A DNA stretch of 64,000 bases from an uncultured delta proteobacterium (GCA_963842085.1 CAWJET010000001.1:672001-736000), one strand, 5' to 3'; counted from the stretch's first letter, positions 25 through 38,129 are shown. Numbers and translations: made by a program. The notes: a model not told the origin generated them from the letters alone.

Positions 25-2352
25 TTAGAACTTGTATTGCAAACTCATATAAGCGGTGTTTCCGGTGAAAGGTGTCCAGTTGGAGTTGCCCAGGAACACC
101 GACTGAGGCGACGCCGCCATCCAGGGTGTCAACCGGTCGTAGCCGAAGTCATTCTCGCCAAAGTTGCTGAAAAGGTAGCCGATGGTCAGCGCCATGTTCT
201 TACGGAAAGGATAGCGGTAGGTGACAATCAACTCGTGGAAGCGCGAACCGACGTCCGGGAAACTCGTCGCTGGGCCAAGGGCGGCATCGCCATTTGCGTG
301 CGTTGCGTCATTCGTAACCGTGTAGTTGTACTGCGCTTGTATGGTCGAGGCGTTCGGTAGCACCTGGTTGGCGGGTATCGTGGCGTTAAAACCAACGTCA
401 ATTGAATTGCCCTGCTCACGACCGTAGCTAGTCCAAGTCTGACCAGGGCAAGTTGCGGGAGTTTGATGCTCGGGAACGGACGGACACTTTGGCTCACCCA
501 CGCCGCCCGGCTGGCGCTGGAAGGAGTTGAGATTCCAGTCCGTGGCGGTCCACGACCAGTCAGCATGCAGGTTTAGTCCCGCGAGCGGGGTCCAATTCAT
601 GCCGACGGAGGGGGTGTAGTCGGACCAGTGCTGCAGACCGAAGTCCGAGGACGGATATGAGTAATCGTCGTAGTCCATCTCGGCATAGAGCGTCAGCGGT
701 TTGAGCCACGGATTTTCTTCCAGCCAGGGGTTGCCTTCCCCGGCTTGAAAGGGCTGGGCGTCCGAATACAGCGAGAACTGATTGACGTGCACTGAGGCCT
801 CGTCGAAGCGGGTCAATTGACTGAACTCGGTTAAGCCGCCGTTCTGATTAACCAGACTCGTGCGATTGTTGTTATAGCCGGGAGAGTCACGGTCGGCATA
901 CTGGTACGAACCCCGCAACTCAAGCCATTCGTAGGGAGTCCAATCCAGCACCGGACCATACGAGGTCGTGTCTTGCTGCAGCACCATCATGCCGCCGTTG
1001 TGATTAGTCTGAATGTTGCCGACCAGACTGGCCACCATCGTCTCGGTTATGTTGTAGCTCGCTTCGCCCTGGATGTTCTGTGTGGAAAAAGCGAAGGGAT
1101 AAGCGGTGGCGCTCCACAGGCTGGCCGTATCATTCAATGAAAATACGTCCTTGAAGGTCACAGCGGGATCATGGTTGTCGTAGTCGAAGTAGCTGTAGGT
1201 GGCCTTTAGCCGCAGGCGGTCCAGCGGCCGGCTGACGACGCTGAAGTTGGCGAAGAATGGCGACACGTCACCGCCCAAGCTCTGCCGGGGAAGCGCTTGG
1301 GAGGGCAAGGCACCGTTGATCGTGAACGGGATGAAGCCCTGGTTCTGAAGCCACCATCCGTAAGAGACGCTGCCCATGAGGTGCGTGTCCATCGGCAGGT
1401 TGAGACCGGCGGTAGCCTCGAAAGTATGAGCCTCGTTGTCGGGGTAGGTGAAGTCGCGGCCGTTGCAGGGCCCAATGCCAGCGGAGCCCCCACCCGAGTA
1501 AATCGGAGAGTCAACGCAAGAACCGCCGGGGCCAGTCATTTCGCCCCAGGTGTTGGGGTTCTGCCAGGTAAGTGTGCTGTACTGGTTCTTGAAGAATGAG
1601 CCCTGATACTGAAGCCCGAGCAGCCAGGTTCCGTTAGCCCACTGCACGCCGACGCCGTAATTGTAAGTGTCGTACTCGATCGGCCGCGAAAGCTCGGTGA
1701 TATTGTACGCACCGGGGTTAGGACCGAACATTTCGCCATACTGGTTGTTGCCGCTTGGGTTCTGGAAATTGAAGTATGCCGAGTAGGTCCACTGGGGCGT
1801 AGGCGTGTAGCGGATGTTCAGGTTGGCGATCCCCTCCAACAGGCTGAGTGACAGCGGCTGGTCAGTCTTGTTTAGCCAGGAGGCGATGTTCGGACCCACG
1901 GTCGGCGTAGGCGCCGCTGGCTTCGAGGGCAGAGTGAAGTTGCCACCATTTTGCTGGTAAGGGCTCTCGGCAATGTCGTCGCTCAGAAAATGCGGAATTT
2001 CCTGCCACTGCGCATCGACATCCAGCAGGCCGTATTCCCCGAAATGGAGGTCGTACAATTCGTTGGTCTGGCCAACGTTGAGGGCGTGGAAGTCCGCGAA
2101 CGTCCGGCCCTCCTTGTCCTGAAGCAGTAACTTCAGCTCGGGCGATATTATCTGCTGCGCGAGGTCCTGATATTCGCGGAACTTGGCGACGTTGGTGGCC
2201 GGTACATTCTGCAGAAAAGCTCCGACCTCGGCCGAGCCCGTTGCGGTGTAATTGCTGCCGACGTTGACCTGGGCGGCGACGAACCGGGGTGTCAGCGTGA
2301 GCACTGTTAGAGCGATGACGAACGGTCGAAATATGAAACGCGGTAAATTCAT
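25..2352 (-). CDS. mtrB: MtrB/PioB-family decaheme-associated outer-membrane beta-barrel
   Basis: 775 aa; signal peptide; AKFREY motif near the N-terminus; aromatic-rich alternating strands; C-terminal YKF; directly downstream of a decaheme cytochrome; GAGGAGG RBS. Confidence 0.9.
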   Translation of the reverse strand: MNLPRFIFRPFVIALTVLTLTPRFVAAQVNVGSNYTATGSAEVGAFLQNVPATNVAKFREYQDLAQQIISPELKLLLQDKEGRTFADFHALNVGQTNELYDLHFGEYGLLDVDAQWQEIPHFLSDDIAESPYQQNGGNFTLPSKPAAPTPTVGPNIASWLNKTDQPLSLSLLEGIANLNIRYTPTPQWTYSAYFNFQNPSGNNQYGEMFGPNPGAYNITELSRPIEYDTYNYGVGVQWANGTWLLGLQYQGSFFKNQYSTLTWQNPNTWGEMTGPGGSCVDSPIYSGGGSAGIGPCNGRDFTYPDNEAHTFEATAGLNLPMDTHLMGSVSYGWWLQNQGFIPFTINGALPSQALPRQSLGGDVSPFFANFSVVSRPLDRLRLKATYSYFDYDNHDPAVTFKDVFSLNDTASLWSATAYPFAFSTQNIQGEASYNITETMVASLVGNIQTNHNGGMMVLQQDTTSYGPVLDWTPYEWLELRGSYQYADRDSPGYNNNRTSLVNQNGGLTEFSQLTRFDEASVHVNQFSLYSDAQPFQAGEGNPWLEENPWLKPLTLYAEMDYDDYSYPSSDFGLQHWSDYTPSVGMNWTPLAGLNLHADWSWTATDWNLNSFQRQPGGVGEPKCPSVPEHQTPATCPGQTWTSYGREQGNSIDVGFNATIPANQVLPNASTIQAQYNYTVTNDATHANGDAALGPATSFPDVGSRFHELIVTYRYPFRKNMALTIGYLFSNFGENDFGYDRLTPWMAASPQSVFLGNSNWTPFTGNTAYMSLQYKF

Positions 2353-2385
2353 CGACCTGTTCCTCCTCGTAAACCTTGGCTGCGC

Positions 2386-3465
2386 TCACCGAGTCAAGTC
2401 CACGCCACCGGGTGCATTTGATCCGTGAATCGCCGAATGACAATTGGTGCAAGCCTGGCTGAAGACAAATACCGTGCCCCGGCCAGACGGCGTGCCCGGA
2501 TGGAACGTCCCGATGTGGCACTGCTGGCACAACCGGGGCGGTCGCATCTTAAGCATCGAGCGGTTTATCGCACCGTGCGGGTCATGGCAGTTCAGGCAGT
2601 CCTGCACGACCGGTGGATGCATCCATAGGAACGGGCCGCGCTTCTCGGCGTGACAGGTGTAACAGGTCTCATTGACGGTGGCGCGCACCAGTTGATTAGG
2701 ATAAGGGCCGCCGTGTGGGTTGTGACAGTCGGTGCAGGTCATGAGTCCCTCGAACAGCGGCATGTGCGAGGGCAGCGTCATTTGCATCTTCTGCTTCAGG
2801 TGACAGCGCAAGCAGACCTGGGTCTCCGGGCGAGTGATGATGAAAGGATTCGACTCCATCGCCGACGCGAGCTGAAAGCGGGGACTTATCTGGCGCATAA
2901 TGGTGTGGCAGTCGGTGCAGCGTAAGCCGCGAAAGGCGTGAGTGCTTGCGTGCCAAAAGGCCTGCGCTCCGTTGTTGTGGCAATTCAGGCAGGCCGCGTT
3001 TTGCTGATCTGCCGCTTCCCCGGAATCGGCTCGGAAACTGATTACCCCGCCAGTACTAGGGCCGTGCATCACTTCGTCAGGCTTCTCATTTCGCCCCATA
3101 GCTTGAGCCATCGCGCCGACATAGCGACTGCCGGGTCCATGACAGGATTCGCATCCCCGCCCTTGCGCCTCGTCGCGAGGATGCTCGAGCATGATCTTGC
3201 CCATCATGGTCTGGCTAAATTCGTGTGTTACTCCTTGATGGCAGCTTTCACAGACTTTGTCACCCAGGTAAGTCGCAAGCGGCGCGGATTGGGCTGGAGT
3301 TACGGATTGCCCATTCGGCTGCGGTGAAGGCGCGACCGGCGTACTCGATGCGGCCGGCGGGGAGGCAGACGCCGCGGCGGCGGCGCCGCATCGATAACAG
3401 ACGAACACCACCCCGACCAGGACAAGGATAGCGATTCGCGGAAATCGCTTGAGGAAAGCAGTCAT
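2386..3465 (-). CDS. mtrA: MtrA/MtoA/DmsE-family periplasmic decaheme cytochrome c
   Basis: 10 CxxCH motifs counted; AEKRGPFLWMHPPV and CHSAIHGSNAP family motifs; start moved to MTAFLKR (signal peptide). Confidence 0.93.
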   Translation of the reverse strand: MTAFLKRFPRIAILVLVGVVFVCYRCGAAAAASASPPAASSTPVAPSPQPNGQSVTPAQSAPLATYLGDKVCESCHQGVTHEFSQTMMGKIMLEHPRDEAQGRGCESCHGPGSRYVGAMAQAMGRNEKPDEVMHGPSTGGVISFRADSGEAADQQNAACLNCHNNGAQAFWHASTHAFRGLRCTDCHTIMRQISPRFQLASAMESNPFIITRPETQVCLRCHLKQKMQMTLPSHMPLFEGLMTCTDCHNPHGGPYPNQLVRATVNETCYTCHAEKRGPFLWMHPPVVQDCLNCHDPHGAINRSMLKMRPPRLCQQCHIGTFHPGTPSGRGTVFVFSQACTNCHSAIHGSNAPGGVDLTR

Positions 3466-3508: not shown

Positions 3509-4264
3509 CTACCGCAACTCGCCGCCGAGGGTGCGATGACGGCCTTGGTTGGCATCGTAACGTTGGTCGCCGCGCAGGTCCGCCAGCCTGCTAGAGAGCC
3601 ACGACAGCCACTCGTCCATTCCCTGGTTATCGCGTGCCGAAACCAACAGCAGGCGCGGCTGGGGCATCACCCTGGCGAGAGCGTCCTCGAATGATTGCGT
3701 GTGCACGTCTGGCAGATGCGGCAGCAGGTCGGCCTTGGTCAGCACGACCAGGTCGGCGCTGCGGAACATCACCGGGTACTTAAGCGGCTTGTCCTCGCCT
3801 TCAGTCACCGCCAGCGCGACTACATTCACGCGCTGACCCAGGTCGTAGACAGCCGGACAAACAAGATTGCCGACATTTTCGATGAAGAGTACGTCGCGAT
3901 CCTGCCAAGCGATGTCATGCAGGCCTCGATGCACCATCGCCGCGTCGAGATGGCAGGTTGACCCGGTCGTGATAGTGGCGGCCGGGATGCCGGCCGCGCG
4001 TAGGCGCTCGCCATCGTGGTCGGTGGCGAGATCGCCGCTGAGCGCGGCCAGCTTGACGCCGCGCGGAGCGAGAGCGCGCGCCGTCGCTTCGATGAGCGCT
4101 GTCTTACCTGAGCCCGGCGAGCCCATGAGATTTATCGCGAGCACGCCAGCAGAGGCGAAATGCTCGCGGTTGTGACGCGCTGCACTCTCATTCGCCTTGA
4201 GAATCCGCTCATGAAGGTCCACCGTGACGACTCGTTCGTCACCACAGCCGCAGGTCTGGCACAT
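3509..4264 (-). CDS. hypB: Hydrogenase nickel-insertion GTPase HypB
   Basis: MCQTCGC N-terminus, GSPGSGKT P-loop, CHLDA, ENVGNLVCPA, EGEDKPLKYP. Confidence 0.97.
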   Translation of the reverse strand: MCQTCGCGDERVVTVDLHERILKANESAARHNREHFASAGVLAINLMGSPGSGKTALIEATARALAPRGVKLAALSGDLATDHDGERLRAAGIPAATITTGSTCHLDAAMVHRGLHDIAWQDRDVLFIENVGNLVCPAVYDLGQRVNVVALAVTEGEDKPLKYPVMFRSADLVVLTKADLLPHLPDVHTQSFEDALARVMPQPRLLLVSARDNQGMDEWLSWLSSRLADLRGDQRYDANQGRHRTLGGELR

Positions 4265-4605
4265 CAGTTCACCTCCATCTCGATTCTGGTCAGCAGGATT
4301 TCATCCCCCTGGGCCAGGCATGCCGCGCCGCCGCACCCTACGCAGCGAAGCGCTCCATGCCGGGGAAGCTCGCAGCCGCACTGGCTGCACTTCCATACCG
4401 CCAGGACCGGCTCGATGGAAAGTGCTGCCTCTGCGCAAACTGTGCGCTCGCGGAAGATCTCATACGCGGTGGCGAGCAGGTCGCGATCGACGCCCGAAAG
4501 CTCGCCGACGCGCACGCAGACCCGGCGCACGGCGGTTGCGCCACGCGAGCGCGCCGTCGTGTCAACCTGCTCTATCAGCGCGCCTATAACCGAATACTCG
4601 TGCAC
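4264..4605 (-). CDS. hypA: Hydrogenase nickel metallochaperone HypA
   Basis: MHEYS N-terminus, two CxxC motifs, GDE motif. Confidence 0.95.
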   Translation of the reverse strand: MHEYSVIGALIEQVDTTARSRGATAVRRVCVRVGELSGVDRDLLATAYEIFRERTVCAEAALSIEPVLAVWKCSQCGCELPRHGALRCVGCGGAACLAQGDEILLTRIEMEVN

Positions 4606-4617
4606 CTACAATCCCTC

Positions 4618-5481
4618 TCACGCGCCGTTGAATTTCGGCGTCCGCTTCGCAATAAACGCCGCGAGTCCGTCGGCAAAGTCCGGCCCATTGGCGACTCGCG
4701 TCAGGCTCTCGAGTTCGCCATCGAGATGGCGATCGAGCATGTCCATGCCGCACGCCTGGTTGATGAGGGCCTTGGCCTCTGCCCAGGCGCGCGTGGGTCC
4801 CGCGGCCAGGCGCTCAACCAAGGCGAAGGTTTCAGCCTCGAATGTTTCATTGGGATGTACTGCCGTGACCAGCCCGATTTCCAGAGCGCGTCTCGCATCC
4901 AGCCGCGGGCTAAGGAACACGAGTTCCAGCGCACGCCTGAGTCCGAGCAGGCGCGGGAGCAGGAAGGTCGAGCTTTCGGCGCCGGTCAGCCCGGTCCGGC
5001 CGTAAGCCCATTCGAAGCTGGCGCGCTCGGAAGCGATGACCAGGTCGCACGCCATCGCGATTCCGAAACCGCCGGCCGCTGCAATCCCGTCCACCGCCGC
5101 CACGAACGGCTTTGCTGCCCGCCGGATCTCGGAGATGGTGCTGTGGATATACTCGACAATTTCCTTCAGCACTTCGCCGAAGCCCGCGCTTTGAGTTGTC
5201 GCCTCCGGTTTGAGGTAGTCGAGTTCGCGCTCATTCCCACCCGTTCGCACATATTTGAGATCGGCGCCGCTGCAAAATACGCCGCCCGAGCCGCGAATCA
5301 CCACCGCGCGCACTGACTCATCGCGCGCCAGCCGCAAACCCGCGCGCCGCAGATCCTGAGCGGTCGCAACGTCGAGCGAGTTGAAGTGCTCACGACGGTC
5401 GATGGTGATGACGCCCACGCCTGCGCGTGTGTCACACAGAACGTGTGGCGACGGGCGACGAGTTGGCTCTTTGACTTCCAT
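4618..5481 (-). CDS. Enoyl-CoA hydratase/isomerase (crotonase) family protein resembling the HypX C-terminal domain
   Basis: FCSGADL, KPFVAAVDGIAAAGG, ACDLVIAS crotonase motifs; AYGRTGLTGAESSTFLLPR; lies between hypE and hypA. Confidence 0.85.
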   Translation of the reverse strand: MEVKEPTRRPSPHVLCDTRAGVGVITIDRREHFNSLDVATAQDLRRAGLRLARDESVRAVVIRGSGGVFCSGADLKYVRTGGNERELDYLKPEATTQSAGFGEVLKEIVEYIHSTISEIRRAAKPFVAAVDGIAAAGGFGIAMACDLVIASERASFEWAYGRTGLTGAESSTFLLPRLLGLRRALELVFLSPRLDARRALEIGLVTAVHPNETFEAETFALVERLAAGPTRAWAEAKALINQACGMDMLDRHLDGELESLTRVANGPDFADGLAAFIAKRTPKFNGA

Positions 5482-5489
5482 GGTACTGC

Positions 5490-6521
5490 TCAGCAAATGC
5501 GCGGCAACGGTTCGCCTTCAGGTTCGGAGAGCAAGCGGCGGCCGAAGCCAGTGTCGAGAATCAGGCGCCCGGGCCGCTCTGCCGTGCAGGTCGCGACGAT
5601 CGCGGCGTTGCGGCCGAGCGGATGAGCGCGCAGGGCGTTAAGTACGCGCTCCGCGGATTCCGCGCGCACCCCGATGAGCGCCTTGCCCTCGTTGGCCACC
5701 ATCAGCGGGTCGATCCCAAGCAGCTCAGCCGCGGCGCGCACACCGGCGTTCAGCGGCACGCTTGGGCCGTTGAGCACGATCCCGACGCCGGCCTTTTGCG
5801 CCATTTCGCAAAGCGCGCTGACCACGCCGCCGCGCGTCGGATCCTTCATCGCAACCACGCCGTCGCCACCTGCGTCGAGCGCCTGGCGGACCATCATATT
5901 GAGAGGCGCCACATCCGACCGCAGATCGCCTTCGAGCGCGAGTTCGTGCCGGCACGCCATCACCGCGAGTCCGTGATCGCCGGCGGTTCCGCTGAGAATG
6001 ATCAGGTCGCCCGGCTTTAGGCCGGAATCGGGAACAACGCGGCGCGAGAGCGCGATGCCCGTCGTATTGAGCACGAGCCCGTCGATCTCGCCGCGGCCCA
6101 TGACCTTTGTGTCGCCGGTTAGAATCCGCGCGTCCGCCTCGCGGCAGGCAGCCTCGATTGAGTCGCGGACGCGTTCGAGGTCAGCGCGGGAAAACCCTTC
6201 TTCGACCACCACCGCGCAGGTGAGCGCCAGAACGTCGGTCGCACCCATCATCGCCAAGTCGTTGACAGTACCGGCGACCGCCAGCCGCCCGATATCGCCG
6301 CCGGGGAAAAAGATCGGACTGATCACGTGCGAGTCGGTGGTGATGACCAGCCATTGGTCCCCGAGCGCGATGGCCGCGCCGTCGTCCATTGCTGCCAGAC
6401 CGATTCCCGGCCCCGGCACGCCGTCCAACCGGTCGACGAAGAGTTCCTTGATGAGCGCGCGCATCGCGCGTCCACCGGCTCCATGCTTGAGCCCGATTCT
6501 GCTGTCTTCTTCGTCGACCAT
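5490..6521 (-). CDS. hypE: Hydrogenase maturation protein HypE
   Basis: HGAGG, TTDSHV, GTVNDLAM, DPTRGG, ANEGK, C-terminal PRIC. Confidence 0.97.
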   Translation of the reverse strand: MVDEEDSRIGLKHGAGGRAMRALIKELFVDRLDGVPGPGIGLAAMDDGAAIALGDQWLVITTDSHVISPIFFPGGDIGRLAVAGTVNDLAMMGATDVLALTCAVVVEEGFSRADLERVRDSIEAACREADARILTGDTKVMGRGEIDGLVLNTTGIALSRRVVPDSGLKPGDLIILSGTAGDHGLAVMACRHELALEGDLRSDVAPLNMMVRQALDAGGDGVVAMKDPTRGGVVSALCEMAQKAGVGIVLNGPSVPLNAGVRAAAELLGIDPLMVANEGKALIGVRAESAERVLNALRAHPLGRNAAIVATCTAERPGRLILDTGFGRRLLSEPEGEPLPRIC

Positions 6522-6531
6522 GGCGTCAGTT

Positions 6532-7665
6532 TCAACTACCCAAATCGGGCCTGCCTCCGTACTCCAGCCAGATGCGGCAAGTCCCTTCACTGCTCACCAT
6601 GCATGCGCCCACCGGATGGTCCGGCAAGCATTTGGTGCCGAAGAGCGGGCAGGCGCTCGGCGTTGCGATACCGGCCATGATGTCGCCGCATATGCACTGC
6701 GCGGCAAGCCGGGGCGGTGCGTACGACCACAGGCCGGTGAGGTCGATCTTGAAGCGCCGGCGTGCGTCGACCTGCGCCCATTCGTCGCGCAAGCGCAGGT
6801 TGCCGTTGGGCACGTGCGCAATTCCGCGCCATCGACCGCCGATCGACCGAAACACCCGCCACAACGCCTCCTGAGCATTGCGGTTTCCCTCGCGCGTGAC
6901 GCACCGCGGATAGGCGTTGACCACGGCCGCACGGCGATCACGAATCAGCTCGAGCAGGCGTGCGAGTCCGGCCAGAATATCGAGCGGTTCGAAGCCGGCC
7001 ACTACGACGGGTATATGATGATGCTCGACGAAACGCTCGAAGACTCCCCATCCAGTGATGGCGGCTGCGTGGCCCGCCGCAAGAAACCCTTCGACCCGTG
7101 TCGCAGGCATTTCGGCGACTATCTCCATCACCGGCGGGATGTACTTGTGAGCGGAGAGAACCGAGAAGTTGGATGGCGTGCCGGCCAGCAGGGCCGCCGC
7201 GGTGGCGACGGCTGTGGTCTCGAAGCCGCTGGCGAAGAACACCAGCTCTTCATCAATGCGGCGCGCCAGTTCCACCGCCTGCGACACGCTGTAGACGACG
7301 TCCACGCGCGCGCCATCCGCCCTCGCGTCTGCCAGCGACTTGACGCTTCCGGGCACGCGCAGCATGTCGCCGTAGGTCGCAATTCTCACTCCTGCAAGCG
7401 CAAGCGCGACCGCCTCGTCAACCTCGGGCAGATCGGTCACGCATACCGGACAGCCCGGTCCCATGATCACGTCGAGCGCGCGGGGCAAGCTGGCCCGCAA
7501 GCCGAAGCGCGCGATTGCCTGCTCGTGGCTTCCGCACACGTGCATCACTGAGATTGGCGCGCGGCCGATAGATTCGCACAGCCGGCCGAGCAGCGCGGTG
7601 AGCTCGCGTCCGCGCCGGGGATCGCGGAACTCGAGCACGCGGCCGTTCATCTGGCTGTCATCCAT
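6532..7665 (-). CDS. hypD: Hydrogenase maturation protein HypD
   Basis: CGSHE, GPGCPVC, GFETT, GACMVSSEGTC. Confidence 0.97.
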   Translation of the reverse strand: MDDSQMNGRVLEFRDPRRGRELTALLGRLCESIGRAPISVMHVCGSHEQAIARFGLRASLPRALDVIMGPGCPVCVTDLPEVDEAVALALAGVRIATYGDMLRVPGSVKSLADARADGARVDVVYSVSQAVELARRIDEELVFFASGFETTAVATAAALLAGTPSNFSVLSAHKYIPPVMEIVAEMPATRVEGFLAAGHAAAITGWGVFERFVEHHHIPVVVAGFEPLDILAGLARLLELIRDRRAAVVNAYPRCVTREGNRNAQEALWRVFRSIGGRWRGIAHVPNGNLRLRDEWAQVDARRRFKIDLTGLWSYAPPRLAAQCICGDIMAGIATPSACPLFGTKCLPDHPVGACMVSSEGTCRIWLEYGGRPDLGS

Positions 7666-24812: not shown

Positions 24813-24821
24813 TGACGGCGT

Positions 24822-27874: not shown

Positions 27875-27978
27875 TTGAGCTCACCCCCGTCCAGCGTCAC
27901 ATGAAAGTCGGGGGAGCGGTGTTACAGTCGCTCCATACCCCGGACATTGAGCCCAGACCTCACTCTTAGCCCGAGCGC

Positions 27979-29493: not shown

Positions 29494-30489
29494 TCAGACC
29501 TTGTCGAGCACCATCGCCAGCAGCACCACCGGCAGGTACGCAAGCGAAACCTTCATGACTCGCTGCGCCGCGGCGGCACTGGTGGAACCTCCCAGCACGA
29601 GTTGCAGGCAACGAAATAGCAACACCGCTCCAAGTACAACGGCGACCGGCACGTAAAGGAGTCCGGCAAACCTCATCAGGGCCGGCATCAGACCAACCAG
29701 GAGCAACGCCAAGGCCGCCGCTACAGTCAGTAAATTGGCGGGGTCGCCATAGCGGCCCCGCTCCGGCAGCATGTGGATACCTGCGCGCGCATAGTCGCGT
29801 CGATAGAGGCGCGCGATCGAGAGCGAATGCGGCAACTGCCACAGGAACATGATGGCGAAAAGTATCAGCGGCTCGCCGCCCAGGCCGTTGCGCGCCGCCG
29901 CCCAGCCGATCACCGGCGGCAGAGCGCCGGGAACCGCGCCAATGACGTGGCAGAGCCAGGTGACTCGCTTCATCGGGGTGTATGCACCCAGATAAAGCGC
30001 CGCGATGGCGCCGGTAACCATTGCGCTCAGCGGATTGACTTTCAACCAAAGATATAAAATCCCGGCGAGCGCGGTAACCACGCCGAACATCAGCGCGTCG
30101 ATCGGCCGCAACCGGCCTGAAGGCAGCGGCCGATGGCGCGTCCGCTCCATCCGGGCGTCCGTGTCGCGCTCGGCGTATTCGTTCAGCGCCAGCGTTCCGC
30201 CGGCCGCCAATGCGGTGCCGATCACCAGGTTAAGCGCCAGCACGAACCCGAACTGCTCGCCGCTTCCCATGTAGAAGCCCGCGAGCGTGGTGATAAGCAC
30301 CATCGTGAGCACGCGCGGCTTGGCCAATTCGAAATAGGCGGCTGCGTACTCGCTCACCGACGGCGCGGCACACAGTGCCACCTCTTCCACCGTCGCGGCT
30401 TTCAGGTTCAGGCGCTGAGAGGGCGTTATAGTTCCCGCCCCCTCAGTGAGCGATGCCAATCGTTCCGACGCTGGAAGGTTCTGGAACAC
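29494..30489 (-). CDS. cyoE: Protoheme IX farnesyltransferase (heme o synthase)
   Basis: LAKPR, ERDTDARMERTRHRPLPSG, YTPMKR, GALPPVIGW, DYARAG; start uncertain. Confidence 0.94.
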   Translation of the reverse strand: MFQNLPASERLASLTEGAGTITPSQRLNLKAATVEEVALCAAPSVSEYAAAYFELAKPRVLTMVLITTLAGFYMGSGEQFGFVLALNLVIGTALAAGGTLALNEYAERDTDARMERTRHRPLPSGRLRPIDALMFGVVTALAGILYLWLKVNPLSAMVTGAIAALYLGAYTPMKRVTWLCHVIGAVPGALPPVIGWAAARNGLGGEPLILFAIMFLWQLPHSLSIARLYRRDYARAGIHMLPERGRYGDPANLLTVAAALALLLVGLMPALMRFAGLLYVPVAVVLGAVLLFRCLQLVLGGSTSAAAAQRVMKVSLAYLPVVLLAMVLDKV

Positions 30490-30493: not shown

Positions 30494-30811
30494 TTAACGC
30501 GCCGTCTTCAGATACTCCAATATTGCATCCTCATCGTGCGGCGGCAGGTTCTCCATCGTGCGCATATGCATGATGATTTGATCCCACTGGTACGGAGCGA
30601 ACTCGGCGGGATTTCGAGCGTTGTGACAGTGGTTGCAATAGATTGGCCACAACGCCTGGCCCTCGTGGAACAGCTCAAGATGCCGCTTTTGCTGTTCCGG
30701 AGTGGGCCCCGTCGGGCCTGCAGCCTGCGCGCCCACCGCAGCAGCCAGCAGCACGAGCGACATCATTCCGGCCTTGGCAATCAGTGATTTCATCGTCGTC
30801 GGCCTCTTCAA
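30494..30811 (-). CDS. Small exported monoheme cytochrome c
   Basis: Signal peptide; CNHCH; W...HMR distal ligand region. Confidence 0.85.
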   Translation of the reverse strand: MKRPTTMKSLIAKAGMMSLVLLAAAVGAQAAGPTGPTPEQQKRHLELFHEGQALWPIYCNHCHNARNPAEFAPYQWDQIIMHMRTMENLPPHDEDAILEYLKTAR

Positions 30812-30814: not shown

Positions 30815-32407
30815 TCAGAAACCAATTGATAGCTGCGTCATCACCGCGACATCGTTCGCCGTTGCGTTGATGCCGGTCGCGGTCGGGGTGGAGGCCGATC
30901 CTACGAAGTTGTAGAGCGTCCCGCCCCTTTCCGGAAGCTCCCAGTCAACCTCGGACTGCCAGACAATCGATGGCGCTATCCAGTAGTCGAGCGCCAGGGC
31001 GACCTCGCGCGCGTGCGGGCTATAGACGGAGGGCGATCCGTTGAAAGTGAAAATCGGTACGGGGCTGATGTCGTTCGCCAGAATGGCACGTTGATTCACG
31101 CCCGAGTAGCGCACCAGGAATTCAGTCTTGTCGAACCTCTGCTCCAGAAAGTCTCCAAGGTAGGGATGCGGAATGCCATAGAGGAAGTAACCGAACATCG
31201 CATACCAGCCCTCCCGGTTCTCATGCCCGCAGCAACCGGGATACATAGCCGCTCCCGTAAGCGAGGGCATTTGACGGTAGGTCTGCGCCCACTCGCCTCG
31301 GGTGCGGAACGGTCCGACGCGATAGGCGTAGCCCACGTCCCAGGCGTTGTACCAGAGCCCGTCGAGCCACTTGCCATTGTAGGTTGACGCCATCAGTTCA
31401 AGCCGTCCCCAATCCGCGCTGATGGGTATCGGGAACAGCCTGAAGCGCGCACCGAAACCCTTGCCATTCGTCGCAATGTTAGTACCGGTGAGCGGATTGA
31501 GTGCCTCACCGATTACCGGGTTGGGAATCGCATCCACGCCGGGCGACGATTCGAAACTCGGCCCGGAATCAATCCATACAGTGTAGTCAACGTCCTGCCC
31601 CATCTTTCCCCACTGGATACCGCCGCGCGCCTGCAGTCCCATAGCCGAGGGGGGAGCGATCGATTCAGCACCGAACATCAGCGGCGCCGTTATGAAAGGA
31701 TTGATCCAGCTGGGGCTCTGGTCCTCGAACCAGTCTCCTAAGGGCGTGTCGAACACCCCGACGAGCAGTTCCAGAGGAAACTCCTGTCCAGCCGGAAAGA
31801 TCTGAAGATTGGCGAGGCTTGGACCCACGTCGGAAATTCCACCCGGTTGGAGGGTAGCGCCGATGCTGCCGTAGAACTGGATCCAGTCATTAAGCCTGAG
31901 CATCGGGTTAACTTCGAAGTCAAGCACCGGTTGATTCATCGCGGCTTCGCGGTCGAAGTAGAAGCCGGCAGAGACGCCACCAACCATCGTGAAGGTATGT
32001 TGGCCGAGAAAGGCGTTTATGCGGTCGCCAAAACCGAGCGGCCCGAGCTGGGAATAGATGGTCTTCTGAATCTGGCCGACCTGCTTCTCAGTTTGAGCGT
32101 TAGTAGTCTGGAAACTAGTCTGCAGAGCGGTCTGGTTTTGCTGGAGATGCTGATTCGACTCCTGGAGTTCCCTGACTGCATCCTCGAGTTTCTCGATATG
32201 TTTGCGTTCGGCGTCAATTTCCTCGAGCAGACGCCGGTACTCAGTCGCTTTTTTCGATCTCGCGCTCGGCGGATCATCCGCCGTGCTTGGCTTCGAGATA
32301 GACGATTCATCCGCGCGCACGCTTCGTGGCGGCAACAGCATCAGCATCACCGCGATCGAAGCCAGTGTCCCCACGATCACCAGATGACTCACGCGCCTCA
32401 TACTCAT
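30815..32407 (-). CDS. Putative outer-membrane porin with N-terminal coiled coil
   Basis: Signal peptide, coiled coil, then aromatic/Gly-rich amphipathic strands, terminal Phe (LSIGF); no CxxCH. Confidence 0.75.
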   Translation of the reverse strand: MSMRRVSHLVIVGTLASIAVMLMLLPPRSVRADESSISKPSTADDPPSARSKKATEYRRLLEEIDAERKHIEKLEDAVRELQESNQHLQQNQTALQTSFQTTNAQTEKQVGQIQKTIYSQLGPLGFGDRINAFLGQHTFTMVGGVSAGFYFDREAAMNQPVLDFEVNPMLRLNDWIQFYGSIGATLQPGGISDVGPSLANLQIFPAGQEFPLELLVGVFDTPLGDWFEDQSPSWINPFITAPLMFGAESIAPPSAMGLQARGGIQWGKMGQDVDYTVWIDSGPSFESSPGVDAIPNPVIGEALNPLTGTNIATNGKGFGARFRLFPIPISADWGRLELMASTYNGKWLDGLWYNAWDVGYAYRVGPFRTRGEWAQTYRQMPSLTGAAMYPGCCGHENREGWYAMFGYFLYGIPHPYLGDFLEQRFDKTEFLVRYSGVNQRAILANDISPVPIFTFNGSPSVYSPHAREVALALDYWIAPSIVWQSEVDWELPERGGTLYNFVGSASTPTATGINATANDVAVMTQLSIGF

Positions 32408-32496
32408 CCTCCCCAGGCTTGCGCCTGAAAAATATGCCAGCAGCGACGAATCGCGTTACCGCCACCGATCCCCATCGGCAGCAGTCGCGGTCCTAG

Positions 32497-32615
32497 CAGG
32501 TTGCGGAAAAACTCAATGAAAGACGATTTCGGCGAAGAGTAAGCATTACTACGATCACGAGAATGCGTCTTGGATCAATGTCATCAGGAGTCAAAAACCC
32601 TTTTTCCGCAACCTG
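32497..32615. mobile_element. MITE (119 bp), IS5/IS1182-like ends
   Basis: Perfect 15-bp terminal inverted repeats CAGGTTGCGGAAAAA / TTTTTCCGCAACCTG, flanked on both sides by CTAG. Confidence 0.85.
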
Positions 32616-32623
32616 CTAGTGCC

Positions 32624-33013
32624 TCATTGCGCTACATCGATTTCGCCCTTCATTCCTTCCTTCACGTGCGTCGTGCAGAAGTACTTGTAAGTCCCGGGAA
32701 CCTTGAACGTGTAGCTGAAGTCTTCGCCCCCGTTCAGGTAACCGGAGTCCCACGTCTCCGCCCCCGCCGGCACCGATGCCCAGCTTGCGTCCGGCGCCTG
32801 GGACGGATCGCTGGTCGCGGTGTGGATGGTTTCGCCCTTGTTCACCCACTTTATAGTATCGCCGACTTTGACCTTCACCGGGTCGGGAACGAATTTCGCC
32901 GGCGTGTCGAACATCTTTACCTCCACGGTTTCCGCGAATGCCGGCATCGCGAGACCCAGCGACAACACACATGCGACCAGCAATCCCCTGCCAAGTAGCT
33001 GCATCTTTTTCAT
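32624..33013 (-). CDS. Plastocyanin/azurin-family blue copper protein
   Basis: Signal peptide; HTAT and YFCTTHVKEGMKG T1Cu ligands. Confidence 0.92.
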   Translation of the reverse strand: MKKMQLLGRGLLVACVLSLGLAMPAFAETVEVKMFDTPAKFVPDPVKVKVGDTIKWVNKGETIHTATSDPSQAPDASWASVPAGAETWDSGYLNGGEDFSYTFKVPGTYKYFCTTHVKEGMKGEIDVAQ

Positions 33014-33348
33014 ATTTTCCTCCAGCGCATCCAGGTTCCATTTGTGTTACCGCTGTTTGTGACAACTAAAGGCTCACCAGGACTCTCGATCGAGCCCGCT
33101 GTTTCCAAATACAGGCTCGTATCCGTTAGTTCTGATTTCTCGGAATAGGCGTGGAACGCGTATAGCGTTATTGCCCCGATAATTCCCCAAGCGAGGGCTA
33201 TCATGAAAAAAGCGCTCACCAGATAAGCGTGCAGGACGCCCGGTCCCGATGACCCAAAGCATAGCGGGCATGCATAGGCCGCAGGAGTGCAGACGAGCAC
33301 CGCCGAGATCGCAAGGGCGGCTGACTTAACTGAAGTAGACCAGCGCAT
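33010..33348 (-). CDS. Small membrane protein with CxxC after the signal peptide
   Basis: AYA-CPLC-FG followed by one TM helix; overlaps both neighbours in the operon. Confidence 0.6.
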   Translation of the reverse strand: MRWSTSVKSAALAISAVLVCTPAAYACPLCFGSSGPGVLHAYLVSAFFMIALAWGIIGAITLYAFHAYSEKSELTDTSLYLETAGSIESPGEPLVVTNSGNTNGTWMRWRKI

Positions 33349-33961
33349 AAATTACAGGCCAGAGAATCACCACGAATGACCAATACACCGAACACGCAAC
33401 CACACCGCGGAAGTCCACGTCGTATCGTCCTCGCCAGACCCGCTTCGCCACGAACGCGAGCACTGCCACCGCCACCACAAGATGTAGCGCGTGGGCGCCA
33501 ACGATCAGATAGAACATTCCGCCGTATACACTCGATGTCATCGTCAGCCCGAACCGAATTAGATGCGCCCATTCGCTGCCCTGAATGGCAAGGAACAGGG
33601 TGCCAAGCGCGAATGTTGCTCCCATCCACCGCATCGCGCCTGCCTTGTTGTGCTGGCGCAGGGCGCGCACCACGTTCCACATCGTCAGCCCGCTCAGGAC
33701 GAGAAGGCTGGTGTTGAATCCGGTCACGGCGAGCGGAAGGCGCGGTTGGTTCGCCGGCGGCCAAAATGGCGCTGACGCGCGCGAGACGAGAAATGCGCTG
33801 ATCAGACCCGCGAAGAGCATTACCTCGGAGCCTACGAATATCAGCACACCGAGCGTCGGATCGACGCCCTTTGGCGACCCCGCAGGACCCGACCTGCCGC
33901 CGCCGAACGCGGTGCCGCGTTTTAGAGTAGAAACCGTTCGAAGCGGAGTTGCCGCAGCCAA
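33326..33961 (-). CDS. coxC: Cytochrome c oxidase subunit III family protein (second)
   Basis: SEVMLFAGLISAF, NTSLLVLS, GAHALH, YWSFV. Confidence 0.88.
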   Translation of the reverse strand: MAAATPLRTVSTLKRGTAFGGGRSGPAGSPKGVDPTLGVLIFVGSEVMLFAGLISAFLVSRASAPFWPPANQPRLPLAVTGFNTSLLVLSGLTMWNVVRALRQHNKAGAMRWMGATFALGTLFLAIQGSEWAHLIRFGLTMTSSVYGGMFYLIVGAHALHLVVAVAVLAFVAKRVWRGRYDVDFRGVVACSVYWSFVVILWPVIYALVYFS

Positions 33962-33977
33962 GCGCTGACTCCTTATC

Positions 33978-34268
33978 CTACGGATGCATCGCGACGTCCG
34001 GAATGAACACCAAGGCCATCACAATCACCAGCGCCACCGGAAGCAGCGCCAGGGTATAAATCAGTACGTCTTCCGAGCGCAGGCGCATATAGTATCGTCC
34101 AATGACGTAGACCTGCGCTGCCGCCGCGGCAAATATGACCCACAGCGCCAGGCTTCGTGGCAGGCCCCGTGCCACGGTCAGGGCGCCCACCAGCAAAAGA
34201 ACAACCAGCAGTATCCAGGTTCTCAAAGAGTCCGAAGCATTGAATTCGGCTTGTTCCATCGGCGACAC
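33978..34268 (-). CDS. Cytochrome c oxidase subunit IV family protein
   Basis: Three TM helices, YYMRLRSE motif; lies between the two subunit III genes. Confidence 0.75.
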   Translation of the reverse strand: MSPMEQAEFNASDSLRTWILLVVLLLVGALTVARGLPRSLALWVIFAAAAAQVYVIGRYYMRLRSEDVLIYTLALLPVALVIVMALVFIPDVAMHP

Positions 34269-34883
34269 CTATCCGGCGGTGGGCGCCAAATACACCAGGG
34301 CAAAAAGCAGCACCCACACCGTCTCGACGAAATACCAATACAGGCACACGTATTTGAGCTTGCGCTCCAACCAACCGGCCGGAGTGCTGGGGCTCACCAT
34401 CAACATCAGTCCGAAGATCACCACGACTCCGGCCAGCAGATGAAGTACATGCAGCCCGGTCATCACATAGTAGAAGCTCCAGAAGAGCGCAGCGAGCGGA
34501 GTAAACCCTTCGCGAAAATCGCCGGCGTATTCGAAGGCCTTGATCACCAGGAAGAGCGTGCCCAGCAGCACAGTGGCGCTCAGGTAACGCTTCACTCGCG
34601 CCGAATCCTGGACGCGCGCGGCGCCTTGCGCGAGCGCGGCGGTCAGGCTGCTCGCAAACAGAACGAAGGTGTTGATCGCCCCCAGCCGCCAGTTGACGTG
34701 CGCGCCGGCGGCTCCCCATCCGCCATGGGAGACCCCCATCAGAATAAAGACACCCATGAGCCCGCCGAAGAGCATTGTTTCGCCGGCGAAGAACACCCAC
34801 ATTCCGAGCTTGCCGATCTCAAAACTGGTCGGTACCTCGTGCGCCGCATGTGCGATCCCGATTTCGGCTGCTGAGTTTGCCAT
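34269..34883 (-). CDS. coxC: Cytochrome c oxidase subunit III family protein
   Basis: KLGMWVFFAGETMLFGG, NTFVLFASS, TGLHVLH, LYWYFVE. Confidence 0.9.
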   Translation of the reverse strand: MANSAAEIGIAHAAHEVPTSFEIGKLGMWVFFAGETMLFGGLMGVFILMGVSHGGWGAAGAHVNWRLGAINTFVLFASSLTAALAQGAARVQDSARVKRYLSATVLLGTLFLVIKAFEYAGDFREGFTPLAALFWSFYYVMTGLHVLHLLAGVVVIFGLMLMVSPSTPAGWLERKLKYVCLYWYFVETVWVLLFALVYLAPTAG

Positions 34884-34893
34884 AAGTTTGCGC

Positions 34894-36600
34894 TCACCCC
34901 TGCGCGGCGCCTGCCTCCACCGCTGCGGCTTGCGGAACCCAATCCTGTTTCATCCCGGGCACACTGTACTCGTATGGCCCGCACACGACTGTCGGTATGG
35001 TGTGGAAGTTCTCATGCGGCGGCGGCGAATCGGTGGCCCATTCAAGCGTGGTGGCATTCCAAGGATTCGCAGGAGCCTTCGCGCCACGGAACATGCTCAT
35101 GAAAAAGTTCAGCAGGAACGGGACCTGCCCAGCTATTATGATGAGCAGCCCGATCGTTGCGATCACGTGGAGCGGCTGAAGCGGCTTGTAGTAGTGGTAA
35201 ACGGACGACAAATAGATTCGGCGCTGTCCGCCGCCCAACCCGATCAAGAACAGCGGAATAAATACCGTGTTGAAACCGATCCAGGTGAAAGCGAAGTGGA
35301 TCCTTCCCAGGGTCTCATTCATCATCCGGCCGAACATCTTCGGGAACCAGAAGTAGATCCCGCCAAATCCCGCGATAACGGCGGTCGGCACGAGCGTGTT
35401 GTGGAAATGCGCGATTACAAAATAGGTGTCGTGCAGGTAGATATCCGACGCATCCGTCCCCAGCGGAATGCCGGTTACCCCGCCCAGCAGGAAATTAGCC
35501 AGGGCGCCCAGCGCAAACAGCATCGCCGTGGTGTACGTGATCTGGCCGCGCCATAGCGTCGCGATCATCGCAAACAGCATCACCGCGAACGGAATGGAAA
35601 TCGCGATCGTGGTCGCGCTGAAAGGCTCTGCCAGCGTCGGGTTCATCCCGCTCACGAACATGTGGTGAGCCCACACCGTGAAGCTCAGGATTCCGGCTGC
35701 AATCACCGACCACACAATCATGCGATAGCCAAAAATCGGCTTGCGGCTGAATACCGGGAGGATCTCCATCACGATGCCGAGCCCCGGTACCGCCACGACA
35801 TACACCTCGGGATGGCCGAAGAACCAGAACAGGTGCTGCCATAGCAGCGGGTCGGCTCCTTTTTCCGGCAGGAAGAAGCCCGTGCCCACCATCCGATCGA
35901 GCAACAACATCACCACGCCGGCGATGAGCGGGCCCACACTCAGCATGAACATCACGCTCGCTACCAGTTCTGCCCACACCAGCAGCGGCATTCGCCAGAT
36001 CGTCATCCCGGGAGCGCGCATCGCGATCGCGGTGGTGAGGAAGTTGATGCCGCCCATCAGGACCGAAGCGAAATCGATCGCCACGGCGAGCAGCCAAAGG
36101 TTTCCGCCCCAGTAATTTCCGGGCAGGAACTTTGCCCCGTCCGACAGCGGAACGTAGTTCGTCCAGCCCGCGCGCGACGCGCCGCCCGGGACGAAAAACG
36201 AAAGCAGCAAGAGGACCGAAGCGACGAAAATAGTCCAGTACGAGGCCATGTTGAGCCGCGGGAACGCCATGTCGCGCGCCCCGACCATCAGCGGGATCAG
36301 GAAATTGCCGAACGCGCCAAGCAGCACCGGCATCGCCACGAAGAAGACCATTGTGGTTCCGTGCATCGTGACGACTTCGTAATACTGCAGTGCACTTACT
36401 TTTCCCCAGAGCGGAACCGAGGTGCGGGGCCAGGCAAGCTGCCAGCGGAAGACGTACGACAAGAACACGCCCACAAACCCCATGAACAAGCCCAGAAACA
36501 GGTACTGCTTGCCGATCACCTTGTGATCGACAGAAAATACGTACTGCCACCAAAAGCTCATCTTCTCGTGAGCCTCGACGGACTGCGCCATCTCGCTCAT
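34894..36600 (-). CDS. coxA: Heme-copper oxidase subunit I, A-family (GHPEVY) with altered K-channel
   Basis: DHKVIG, MHG, DMAFPRLN, GHPEVY, WAHHMF, HDTYFVIAHFH, RR; all six His ligands present. Confidence 0.96.
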   Translation of the reverse strand: MSEMAQSVEAHEKMSFWWQYVFSVDHKVIGKQYLFLGLFMGFVGVFLSYVFRWQLAWPRTSVPLWGKVSALQYYEVVTMHGTTMVFFVAMPVLLGAFGNFLIPLMVGARDMAFPRLNMASYWTIFVASVLLLLSFFVPGGASRAGWTNYVPLSDGAKFLPGNYWGGNLWLLAVAIDFASVLMGGINFLTTAIAMRAPGMTIWRMPLLVWAELVASVMFMLSVGPLIAGVVMLLLDRMVGTGFFLPEKGADPLLWQHLFWFFGHPEVYVVAVPGLGIVMEILPVFSRKPIFGYRMIVWSVIAAGILSFTVWAHHMFVSGMNPTLAEPFSATTIAISIPFAVMLFAMIATLWRGQITYTTAMLFALGALANFLLGGVTGIPLGTDASDIYLHDTYFVIAHFHNTLVPTAVIAGFGGIYFWFPKMFGRMMNETLGRIHFAFTWIGFNTVFIPLFLIGLGGGQRRIYLSSVYHYYKPLQPLHVIATIGLLIIIAGQVPFLLNFFMSMFRGAKAPANPWNATTLEWATDSPPPHENFHTIPTVVCGPYEYSVPGMKQDWVPQAAAVEAGAAQG

Positions 36601-36603
36601 CGC

Positions 36604-37341
36604 CTATCCCTCCTTCCCGTTTGCCGGCGATCGCGCACCTGATGCGCTCTTGCCCGTGCCGGCGGCGGCGGACTTGGACCAATGCTGGTTAACCCATTGC
36701 TGATAGTCCTCGGGCGTCAGAACTTTCAGGATACCTTTCATCGCGAAGTGCGAGATCCCGCAAAGCTGGGAGCATCCGATTTCATATGTGCCGGGCTGCG
36801 TCGCCTCGAACCATGCGGGAATCTCCCGGCCCGGAAGGACGTCCTGTCTAAGACGCAACTGCGGTACGTAAAAACTGTGGATCACGTCCTTCGACGTCAT
36901 CAGCAAGCGGACCACCTGGCCCGTGGGAACGGTCAAAGTCGTTGTTTGGACCAGGTCGTCGTGCGTGCCGAACTGGCCGTCAGGACCCGGATACGTGAAC
37001 TCCCATCCGAACTGGAACGCATCCAACTTTACCGTCAGCCCCGGAGCCGGACTTTGCTCCTTAACCAGTTCCCAGACCGGCTTTGCCCGAACGTCGATCG
37101 CCACATCAAGGAAGATGACGACAATGACGGGGATCAGCACCCATGCGAGCTGGCGCAGCGAATCGCCACGCACAAAGAATGCGTGCTGGCCCTCGCGGCG
37201 ACGGTAGAAGATGACGAACGCCAAGAGCGTACCCTCGGCCAGGATGAGCGCCGTACCGACTATGGAGATGACGAGCCTGATCACCGAGTCAATGTTTGGC
37301 CCGAACGTCGAAATGTCTTGTGGAAGCCAGCCGAAGATCAT
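36604..37341 (-). CDS. coxB: Cytochrome c oxidase subunit II
   Basis: Two TM helices; DVIHSF and CSQLCGISHFAM CuA motif. Confidence 0.94.
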   Translation of the reverse strand: MIFGWLPQDISTFGPNIDSVIRLVISIVGTALILAEGTLLAFVIFYRRREGQHAFFVRGDSLRQLAWVLIPVIVVIFLDVAIDVRAKPVWELVKEQSPAPGLTVKLDAFQFGWEFTYPGPDGQFGTHDDLVQTTTLTVPTGQVVRLLMTSKDVIHSFYVPQLRLRQDVLPGREIPAWFEATQPGTYEIGCSQLCGISHFAMKGILKVLTPEDYQQWVNQHWSKSAAAGTGKSASGARSPANGKEG

Positions 37342-37346
37342 GATGT

Positions 37347-38129
37347 TTACTCAGCCTGCGGCAAGCCTTGTCGTTTCGCAGGGGCGACTCCAAGGCCTGA
37401 GCACTCTCCCAGCTTCTCGCCGCGAACGGTGTTGCTGGAGGGGATTCCGGTGGCCGGCGGATTGTCGTCGTGACAGTCCAGGTTGCCGCCGATGTAATTT
37501 TGCGAGATGAGCCCCGACGCGACGGGATAGCCCGGCACGGTTATCGATCCCGCATTATTGTGGAACTCCAGCTTCCCGCCCATCTGGACTGCCCGGTTGC
37601 AAGCACTTGGATCCCCAATTACCCAAGGTGAATCGGACGAGCTCCCTTGGATTTGAACATCTCCGCCGATCCAGACATAGCAGAGGAAATTCGTCTTAAG
37701 ATCGCCGGTAGGGGGCGAAGTCGGCGGGAAACTCGTGGTATGAGACGCGGTCACGTTCCCGCCAACCGTGCTGTCCCCATACAGCCCGAGATATTTGGCG
37801 TGATCGGCCGTCAGGTTTCCCCGGATGTGCACGGTGCCGGCGATGAGGCCGCCCTCGACGGTGACGTTCCCCGTTACCGTGGTTCCTGCGAGCGTGCAGG
37901 CTGCTCCCGCGGGAACGTCTACGTTGCCATCGACTGTGACCGCACCCATTGTGACCTTACCAAACGAGCCGGTGCATGAGGTCACGGGTGCGGCGTTGGC
38001 GGCCGTAGCCGACAAGCCAACGACCACTGCTAGGCCAACCGTGCTGACCAGGTAACCCATCAGCTTGAGCATCGAGTCGATGCTCGGACCGAGCGTTGAA
38101 ACGTCTTGTGAATGCCTGGCTAGGATCAT
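37347..38129 (-). CDS. Exported Gly/Thr/Val-rich hypothetical protein (beta-helix-like) with coxB-derived N-terminus
   Basis: GGAGG RBS; DVSTLGPSIDS leader; repeated (V/I)xGN(V/L) units; several Cys; 5-bp gap to coxB. Confidence 0.65.
   Translation of the reverse strand: MILARHSQDVSTLGPSIDSMLKLMGYLVSTVGLAVVVGLSATAANAAPVTSCTGSFGKVTMGAVTVDGNVDVPAGAACTLAGTTVTGNVTVEGGLIAGTVHIRGNLTADHAKYLGLYGDSTVGGNVTASHTTSFPPTSPPTGDLKTNFLCYVWIGGDVQIQGSSSDSPWVIGDPSACNRAVQMGGKLEFHNNAGSITVPGYPVASGLISQNYIGGNLDCHDDNPPATGIPSSNTVRGEKLGECSGLGVAPAKRQGLPQAE

Follow-up and report, generated by a model that had tools for sequence, protein, structure and literature searches.

Hydrogenase, Calvin cycle and oxidase operons, apparently inherited separately, adjoin in a Candidatus Binatus genome

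In the rus operon of Acidithiobacillus ferrooxidans, Cyc2 counts a cupredoxin and an aa3-type oxidase among its neighbours. Cyc2 is described as a 16-strand OprO/P-like barrel with one c haem at its periplasmic mouth, and OprP is the reported template for the barrel (10.1101/228056). A second kind of outer-membrane conduit is represented by PioAB and by the Mto cluster of Sideroxydans lithotrophicus ES-1, reported to comprise mtoA, mtoB, mtoD, imoA and pmcA (PMC13390432). For the Binatota, the available text of Murphy et al. reports that three Binatales genomes have phosphoribulokinase (PRK) together with RuBisCO, and describes uptake hydrogenases of group 1, mostly 1f, as well as copper monooxygenases; it treats the Calvin cycle for one-carbon assimilation only and mentions neither gene clustering, an Mtr conduit nor a porin-cytochrome pair (10.1101/2020.09.14.296780). 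Here, a window of 64,000 nt from an uncultured soil bacterium (GCA_963842085.1 CAWJET010000001.1:672001-736000) was analysed. It corresponds to C1:672001-736000 of a 4.93-Mb genome in two contigs (C1 and C2; genome G000), whose completeness is rated at 100%. Between positions 25 and 38,129 it carries a hydrogenase-hyp-MtrAB operon (block 1), a cbb operon (block 2) and a haem-copper oxidase operon (block 3). The H2-uptake, MtrAB, porin/cytochrome, RuBisCO/PRK and oxidase genes named in the original prediction were confirmed to be real, intact and in their assigned places. We interpret the locus, with a probability of about 55%, as an assemblage, specific to this lineage, of three cassettes inherited separately, which would give a heterotroph facultative H2-driven chemolithoautotrophy or mixotrophy. 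Binatia have been described as methylotrophs and alkane degraders; that a complete genome of this group encodes H2 uptake and CO2 fixation along with two candidate outer-membrane electron conduits broadens the picture.

The three blocks were found together in one of 165 family genomes, the present one. The comparison with relatives that had been suggested as a check recovered the blocks unlinked, and all three in no other family genome. Same-type hyaB (>=77%) occurs in 13 of the 164 relatives, mtrB homologues in 34 and same-type coxA (>=75%) in 12, with none of the latter in the five other RuBisCO genomes. The cbbL gene was detected in 2/251 class genomes sampled and 6/165 family genomes, and in none of 46 other members of the genus. 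The region had been presented as a compact island of three adjacent operons forming one module. The operons exist, but a 5-kb spacer separates blocks 1 and 2, and block 1 runs on 9 kb past the window start. A conserved or mobile three-block island was rejected because the blocks are unlinked in relatives and differ in origin and distribution, which amounts to half of the refuting condition attached to the original prediction; by sequence comparison, they appear to be separately inherited cassettes and not one conserved module. Neither was any mark of a mobile genomic island seen. GC, GC3 and codon use of the region show no shift, no integrase or transposase was detected among the window and extension proteins scanned, and the window holds no real tRNA (an ARAGORN match at 13341-13433 falls within hyaB and was discarded). 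Rfam gave 0 matches, and promoter and terminator scans stayed near chance. Such an island was rejected in the absence of integrase or transposase, tRNA target, compositional shift or a unit common to other genomes. The flanks are a patchwork, and the locus is best explained as a variable region of the Candidatus Binatus genome.

The best sign of a functional neighbourhood is the move of rpe (28725..29423, minus strand), although this was a single event and the region is a patchwork. This gene, the single copy of the genome and 80-91% identical to the congener copies, is located in congeners between fmt-rsmB-rlpA and tRNAPro-plsY, a site kept in 29/29 of the loci fetched (of 44 matches). The flanks of that site map to C1:1411-1415k, both sides in 24 loci, and none of the 29 loci carries the window neighbours. 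In G000 the ancestral site is closed without remnant, and the rpe and plsY trees both place the genome near the same congeners, with weak support. Since a single-copy gene is missing from a site that congeners keep, the native rpe has moved, in this lineage alone, to its present position about 3 kb from cbbX. The original prediction had placed rpe correctly in the oxidase operon; its meaning there is different, as the gene is the only rpe of the genome and a newcomer. An old membership in that operon was rejected, rpe being beside block 3 in 0/12 genome loci and 0/30 same-type metagenome loci (15 with >=2.2 kb downstream); cbb, hya and mtr were likewise found beside none of them. Downstream lies a tail found in this genome only (25947..28683, minus strand), coding for a carboxypeptidase-regulatory-domain protein, a CoxB-cytochrome c fusion and a NirK-like two-domain copper protein. 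The first gene is 89% identical in nucleotides to a bc-linked copy at C1:368386-369108 and the fusion is 86% identical to coxB, so that copies of coxB and of the bc-linked gene were added beside the moved rpe. The NirK-like protein has type 1 copper ligands only and scores 150.6 with TIGR02376, under the cut-off of 296.3. At the positions that we take to be those of the type 2 copper histidines, the first is proline here (histidine in 9 homologues) and the third is missing; a copper nitrite reductase was rejected on the loss of these histidines. A lithoautotrophy cluster, moved housekeeping gene included, would here be caught in the course of its assembly within one lineage.

Block 2 (19799..25799, plus strand) has the order glpX-prk-fba-cbbL-cbbS-cbbX and codes for a red-type form I RuBisCO with its activase. 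Catalytic motifs, small subunit, CbbX and PRK are all present, the best structure matches are red-type, and the profile scores are 782.9 for NF003252 (cut-off 438), 518.6 for TIGR02880 (459) and 373.9 for PRK07429 (236). The genes gap, pgk, tpi, tkt and rpiB as well as complex I are encoded elsewhere in the genome, and the genetic capacity for CO2 fixation with H2 electrons, as originally proposed, is supported at the level of gene content. Among PRK relatives, identities of the best 80 of at least 208 lie at 60-71%, and almost all of these have alphaproteobacterial titles, many of them Methyloceanibacter. The full gene order is shared with alphaproteobacterial red-type cbb operons (titles Benzoatithermus flavus, Methyloligella) in 7 of these best 80 loci, at 59-83% identity. 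Unlike them, the present operon has no rpe of its own, the host gene having moved next door; hya, mtr or cox is near prk in none of the best 80. The closest relatives of the cbb operon thus appear to be alphaproteobacterial. The other five cbb operons of the family differ in gene order, have PRKs that are 38-48% identical and lack hya, mtr and cox alongside, and in the cbbL tree the family copies split into three lineages. Codon use of the cbb region is entirely host-like, which argues that the gain was not recent.

In the proposed mechanism, HyaABC would pass electrons from H2 to the quinone pool and O2 respiration via any of five haem-copper oxidases would generate a proton gradient. Complex I in reverse, or organic co-substrates, would provide NADH, and the acquired cbb operon, together with the native gap, pgk, tpi, tkt and rpiB and the moved rpe, would fix CO2. 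In favour of H2 as the driver, a same-type hydrogenase is found in 4/5 other RuBisCO genomes versus 9/159 without RuBisCO, counts in which kin are not independent and which represent about three separate RuBisCO lineages. Several observations weigh against this interpretation. As the only hydrogenase is quinone-linked, growth on H2 and CO2 would need reverse electron flow. In the other genomes that possess both hydrogenase and RuBisCO, the two lie on different contigs. No cbbR adjoins the cbb operon. Common descent of the six family RuBisCOs was not rejected (approximately unbiased test, p 0.097, row L167 left out), so that the independent gain of the operon rests mainly on the PRK identities and on gene order. 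A scan of six intergenic regions, with up to two mismatches allowed, recovered no FNR/CRP box common to the blocks, which speaks against a single module as well. An alternative feed for the cycle could come from a copper monooxygenase operon and from an NAD-linked formate dehydrogenase, both also encoded in the genome. Finally, unrelated cassettes can accumulate in an insertion hot spot even if selection plays no part. The blocks would then be chance neighbours in one such spot and serve separate ends: H2-based persistence for the hydrogenase, an electron sink or CO2 recapture during alkane or formate oxidation for RuBisCO, and O2 or peroxide scavenging for the oxidase. This explanation, which we consider improbable, is consistent with the independent distribution of the blocks, the patchwork flanks and the lack of a shared regulator site in the regions scanned. 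The copper monooxygenase operon with its aldehyde and alcohol dehydrogenases, the formate dehydrogenase elsewhere and the many Methyloceanibacter titles among the best PRK relatives point the same way. Chance is harder to reconcile with the departure of the single rpe from a site that all congener loci keep to the vicinity of cbbX, with the addition of the duplicated coxB and bc-linked gene at the same junction, and with the repeated co-occurrence of hydrogenase and RuBisCO. The copper monooxygenase operon is of the pmoCAB type (C1:3067130-3070204), with a sigma-54 regulator, an aldehyde dehydrogenase, a porin and a Zn alcohol dehydrogenase nearby. No pyrroloquinoline quinone (PQQ) methanol dehydrogenase scored over its cut-off, and short-alkane oxidation is therefore its likely role.

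Block 1 is a minus-strand operon (14710->25) that begins with the genes of a Group 1 membrane-bound uptake [NiFe] hydrogenase, namely hyaA (Tat), hyaB, hyaC (cytochrome b) and hyaD, followed by a monoheme cytochrome c (10317..14710). It is the only NiFe hydrogenase of the genome. The proximal-cluster motif C-x-x-N of HyaA reads C-A-G-N in 12/13 sequences and C-C-G-N in one. Supernumerary cysteines at the proximal cluster characterize the O2-tolerant 6-Cys group 1d hydrogenases; they are missing here, and this class was rejected. The genes hypF, hypC, hypD, hypE, a crotonase, hypA and hypB come next (3509..10320). The stand-alone crotonase (4618-5481), between hypE and hypA, is kept in seven other hyp operons of the family (63-92%) and may be the counterpart of the C-terminal half of HypX. 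The operon continues, across gaps of 43 and 33 nt, with a decaheme cytochrome of the MtrA/MtoA/PioA family (2386..3465) and an MtrB/PioB-type outer-membrane barrel (25..2352). The former has 10 CxxCH motifs, 235.5 bits with TIGR03508 (cut-off 192.2) and an E-value of 7e-50 to 6r2q_A, and the latter 259 bits with PF11854 (cut-off 23) and 198.9 with TIGR03509, under its cut-off of 240. A decaheme periplasmic cytochrome with an adjacent MtrB/PioB barrel, as in MtrAB, MtoAB and PioAB conduits, is thus encoded. MtrC or OmcA was not found in the genome (TIGR03507, best 19.1 bits versus a cut-off of 209.3), which has two decahemes only, both MtrA-like. The second MtrAB (49-50%) is located at C1:1815044-1821133 and is followed by a cytochrome c, a Rieske protein and a cytochrome b.

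Beyond the window start, the operon extends over C1:671997->662989 with eight more cytochromes: a monoheme cytochrome c, two pentaheme proteins, a kelch propeller, a TPR protein, a monoheme cytochrome c, a NapC/NirT tetraheme, a monoheme cytochrome c, an 11-heme cytochrome and a cytochrome b are encoded in this order. The last two together, we presume, resemble a split CbcL. The joined operon is conserved up to napC in the congeners G179 and G274 and rearranged in G305, and cbbL is present in none of the three. Between G179 and G274 the operon layout is common and the neighbours are 80-90% identical to those of the window, with MtrAB at 56-59% and 88%, respectively; apparently, this pair was exchanged in situ. 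In 8/12 relatives the two pentaheme genes are found no more than about 10 kb from mtrB, which suggests that they belong to the wire and not to the hydrogenase. These two paralogous cytochromes (L001:17134-19439) are of no clear family and also occur in proteins named Acidobacteriota. Their model gave no Foldseek match at E 0.001, and NrfA-fold structures including OcwA appear at Z 6-7 only, a weak likeness within chance range.

The block resembles the Mto cluster and PioAB in its decaheme and large barrel without MtrC, its monoheme cytochromes and its NapC/NirT tetraheme with CxxCHxM (PMC13390432). It differs from them by its junction to a hydrogenase-hyp operon and by the additional pentahemes, kelch and TPR proteins, 11-heme cytochrome and cytochrome b. 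The decaheme has methionine at two conserved positions, one of which replaces the 6r2q histidine after haem motif 4, and the motifs TxMG and CxDCHxxM are present in 25/25 of the decaheme rows aligned and are thus family-wide. The tetraheme has the CxxCHxM motif of ImoA, and the methionine-ligand motifs of both proteins look PioA/ImoA-like. His-Met ligation was reported for PioA and for MtoA of Ferrigenium straubiae, its meaning being called inconclusive (10.64898/2026.01.22.701106), and ImoA of ES-1 is reported as possibly working in either direction (PMC13390432). Either direction of electron flow is for these reasons conceivable, with uptake modestly favoured. Alternatively, block 1 could be an anaerobic respiratory chain from H2 to Fe(III) or humics, running through the hydrogenase, quinone, NapC or the CbcL-like proteins, MtrAB and pentahemes outside the cell, on which CO2 fixation may ride under anoxia. 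The single run of hydrogenase and mtrAB, which has short gaps and is kept in G179 and G274, would suit such a chain, as would the CbcL-like pair, the faint OcwA likeness of the pentahemes and the adjoining USP, CBS and Crp/Fnr genes. It agrees less with the failure to find MtrC over its cut-off (19 bits versus 209), the chance-range fold match of pentahemes whose cellular location is only presumed, and the PioA/ImoA-like methionine motifs. In addition, a red-type RuBisCO with CbbX and five oxidases suggest an aerobe. This chain is quite doubtful.

The second conduit would be formed by two genes of block 3, an OprP-like 16-strand porin with an N-terminal coiled coil (30815..32407, minus strand) and a small monoheme cytochrome c (30494..30811, minus strand). 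The porin model has 16 long strands (predicted local distance difference test, pLDDT, 79.6), and its best match is OprP (Z 26.0, root-mean-square deviation 3.9, 306 aligned). The complex model scored 0.90 versus 0.02 for the best control, with >=96% of contacts agreeing between runs and a partner pLDDT of >=86. The mark of 0.90 was reached by 116/157 solved and 2/215 mismatched pairs, counts that apply here only approximately, own alignments and a haem having been used. Contacts are made by the short turns on the chain-end side and by the inward loop 228-235, which the haem motif faces, and the cytochrome is modelled as a periplasmic plug beneath the constriction of the porin. The pair would therefore be a Cyc2 architecture split over two genes, not a member of Cyc2. 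The two open reading frames are separate, with the porin first and without CxxCH in it, and the motif AXPXFAR[Q/K][T/Y] before CxxCH, reported as the Cyc2 signature (10.1101/228056), was detected in 0/15 aligned cytochromes. Pfam gave no match over cut-off for the small cytochrome, which also lacks a close relative of solved structure. Its gene directly follows the porin in 75/80 metagenome loci, and four of the five misses have <=108 nt downstream. In the 50 more distant of these loci, what comes next includes genes for a cupredoxin (23), a further cytochrome (17), a NirK-like protein (7), bc-complex proteins or an aa3 oxidase, so that, unlike Cyc2, this pair heads loci of several kinds. A second porin/monoheme pair (39% and 49%) at C2:34931-41869 heads an operon of a cytochrome, an Fe-S protein, a Rieske protein, a cytochrome b and a tetraheme.

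Both candidate outer-membrane conduits of the original prediction thus look real, one by its MtrAB profiles and the other by fold and complex models. They appear to be older family modules, also found without RuBisCO. Their most likely partners in electron exchange are extracellular redox pools of iron or humics, uptake being somewhat favoured, and they are most likely extras and not the reason for the gain of the Calvin cycle; perhaps the genome can also fix carbon on electrons from outside the cell. A more integrated iron- or electro-lithoautotrophy may be envisaged. Fe(II) in the OprP-like pore would reduce the plug cytochrome, then the cupredoxin and an aa3 oxidase without K channel, while MtoAB-like, NapC and CbcL-like proteins would feed the quinone pool for NADH, with the blocks co-regulated and H2 as second donor. 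This is a tentative and rather unlikely reading. It draws on the match of the porin to the template of the Cyc2 barrel (10.1101/228056), the score of the pore-plug complex against its controls, the usual position of the cytochrome after the porin with cupredoxin, cytochrome, oxidase or bc complex beyond, the parallel to the Mto cluster with its ImoA motif (PMC13390432), and the report of an Fe(II) oxidizer having both a K-channel-less A-family oxidase and a His-Met MtoA (10.64898/2026.01.22.701106). However, none of the 12 other genomes with the oxidase block has RuBisCO. The porin homologue is found in 114/164 relatives, mostly heterotrophs by gene content, and arginine is frequent among its invariant residues, as it is in anion-selective pores. 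The Cyc2 signature is missing, and the methionine motifs are family-wide and of a meaning that their source paper calls inconclusive (10.64898/2026.01.22.701106). In its boldest form, equally unlikely, this reading would make the soil Binatia species a branched iron- or electro-lithoautotroph: a hitherto undescribed two-gene Cyc2 analogue would feed the cupredoxin and a D-channel-only aa3 oxidase, the quinone pool would be supplied by a Mto-like wire and the hydrogenase, and host genes would be in the course of recruitment by a Calvin cycle of foreign origin. The pore-plug pair being present in most Binataceae genomes and invisible to searches for the Cyc2 motif, surface electron uptake could, if the pair moves electrons, be family-wide. 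The module is small and expressible, and would in that case be a conduit of a new type that present marker searches overlook. The literature searched, supplements excluded, contained no paper that describes this cluster or, for Binatia, a Cyc2 analogue made of two genes, and the extended data of Murphy et al. may list these genomes. New relative to that literature are the combination of blocks, the move of rpe and, above all, the pore-plug conduit of two genes; each block has known kin.

Block 3, a minus-strand operon (38129->25947), opens with a secreted protein of no known family (37347..38129). An A-family haem-copper oxidase follows (coxB, coxA, coxC, coxD, a second coxC and a small membrane protein, 33010..37341), then a plastocyanin-like type 1 copper cupredoxin (32624..33013), the porin and its cytochrome, ctaB for haem O synthase (29494..30489), rpe and the tail described above. 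The order from coxB to the porin cytochrome is conserved in 10/12 loci fetched from relatives, the other two ending short. CoxA keeps the six histidine ligands, the His-Tyr cross-link pair and the D channel, and subunit II the CuA motifs, in 11/11 same-type sequences. The K-channel lysine is methionine or isoleucine in 11/11 genome and 14/14 metagenome sequences of this type (the sets may overlap), and the K-channel threonine is replaced by phenylalanine and the serine by methionine, glutamine or leucine; these positions follow a residue numbering that we take to apply. The entry glutamate of subunit II is glutamate in 5/10 orthologues and glutamine in 5/10. Three resident A-type oxidases retain the lysine. 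From these residues, the enzyme would be an A1-like O2 reductase without K channel, a natural A-family variant that lends itself to testing if catalysis can run on the D channel alone. A nitric oxide reductase was rejected since the active-site tyrosine, whose loss is the criterion for such enzymes among haem-copper oxidases (PMC11214002), is retained. The K-channel-less A-family oxidase reported from F. straubiae likewise keeps this tyrosine; its operon coxBA11C is without porin, cupredoxin or second subunit III, unlike block 3, to which it is likened by features only (10.64898/2026.01.22.701106). The fifth haem-copper oxidase of the genome, divergent and probably of B type, lies at C1:1311556-1313540, a few kb from relaxase-like and integrase-like open reading frames. 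In the genome, neither a bd oxidase nor a PQQ alcohol dehydrogenase scored over cut-off. A miniature inverted-repeat element with 19-nt terminal repeats (32493..32619) is inserted between cupredoxin and porin; it has 17 matches in the genome and is polymorphic between strains, contigs of runs X3 and X4 being without it.

The RecA, GyrB and resident CoxA proteins belong to 90% clusters in which the members that carry a name are Candidatus Binatus; the host is assigned to this genus, which bears out the initial impression of a Binatota-like genome. The interval 19001-29000 is present at 72-98% of its words in 7 soil runs from two studies, one run being the possible source; no RNA data set was listed among the carriers, and four runs with shares under 0.1 were left out. 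Contigs of four other runs (two studies) cover the interval 13001-33000 in 30/30 bins and extend across the junctions between the blocks. Contig pieces listed span 14357-15335, 17200-18525, 18479-20523 and 25237-26345 (two runs), and further ones 26118-27278, 28339-28958 and 29122-30568. No bridging piece for the crp gene is among those listed; the order hya-DUF2934-crp-usp was also found in the relative G179. One joint, 14993-30212, is present in contigs of run X4. A chimeric contig, which would have undone the original prediction, is ruled out by the bridging contigs of these four other runs.

The spacer between blocks 1 and 2 (14909..19227, both strands) encodes a DUF2934 protein, a Crp/Fnr regulator (15406-16155, plus strand), a USP, a CBS protein and a repeat protein (17887-19227, minus strand). 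The latter, just before the cbb operon, is secreted, carries Asn/Thr repeats and an S74 intramolecular chaperone domain, and has a partial paralogue on C2. At 18 kb to the left of the window, a gas vesicle cluster with gvpK (L001:1-6200) was matched in 1/5 congeners tested. To the right of the blocks, the window encodes an NnrS protein (48032-49222) and a photolyase fused to a DUF1722/thiouracil desulfurase domain (58121-60513).

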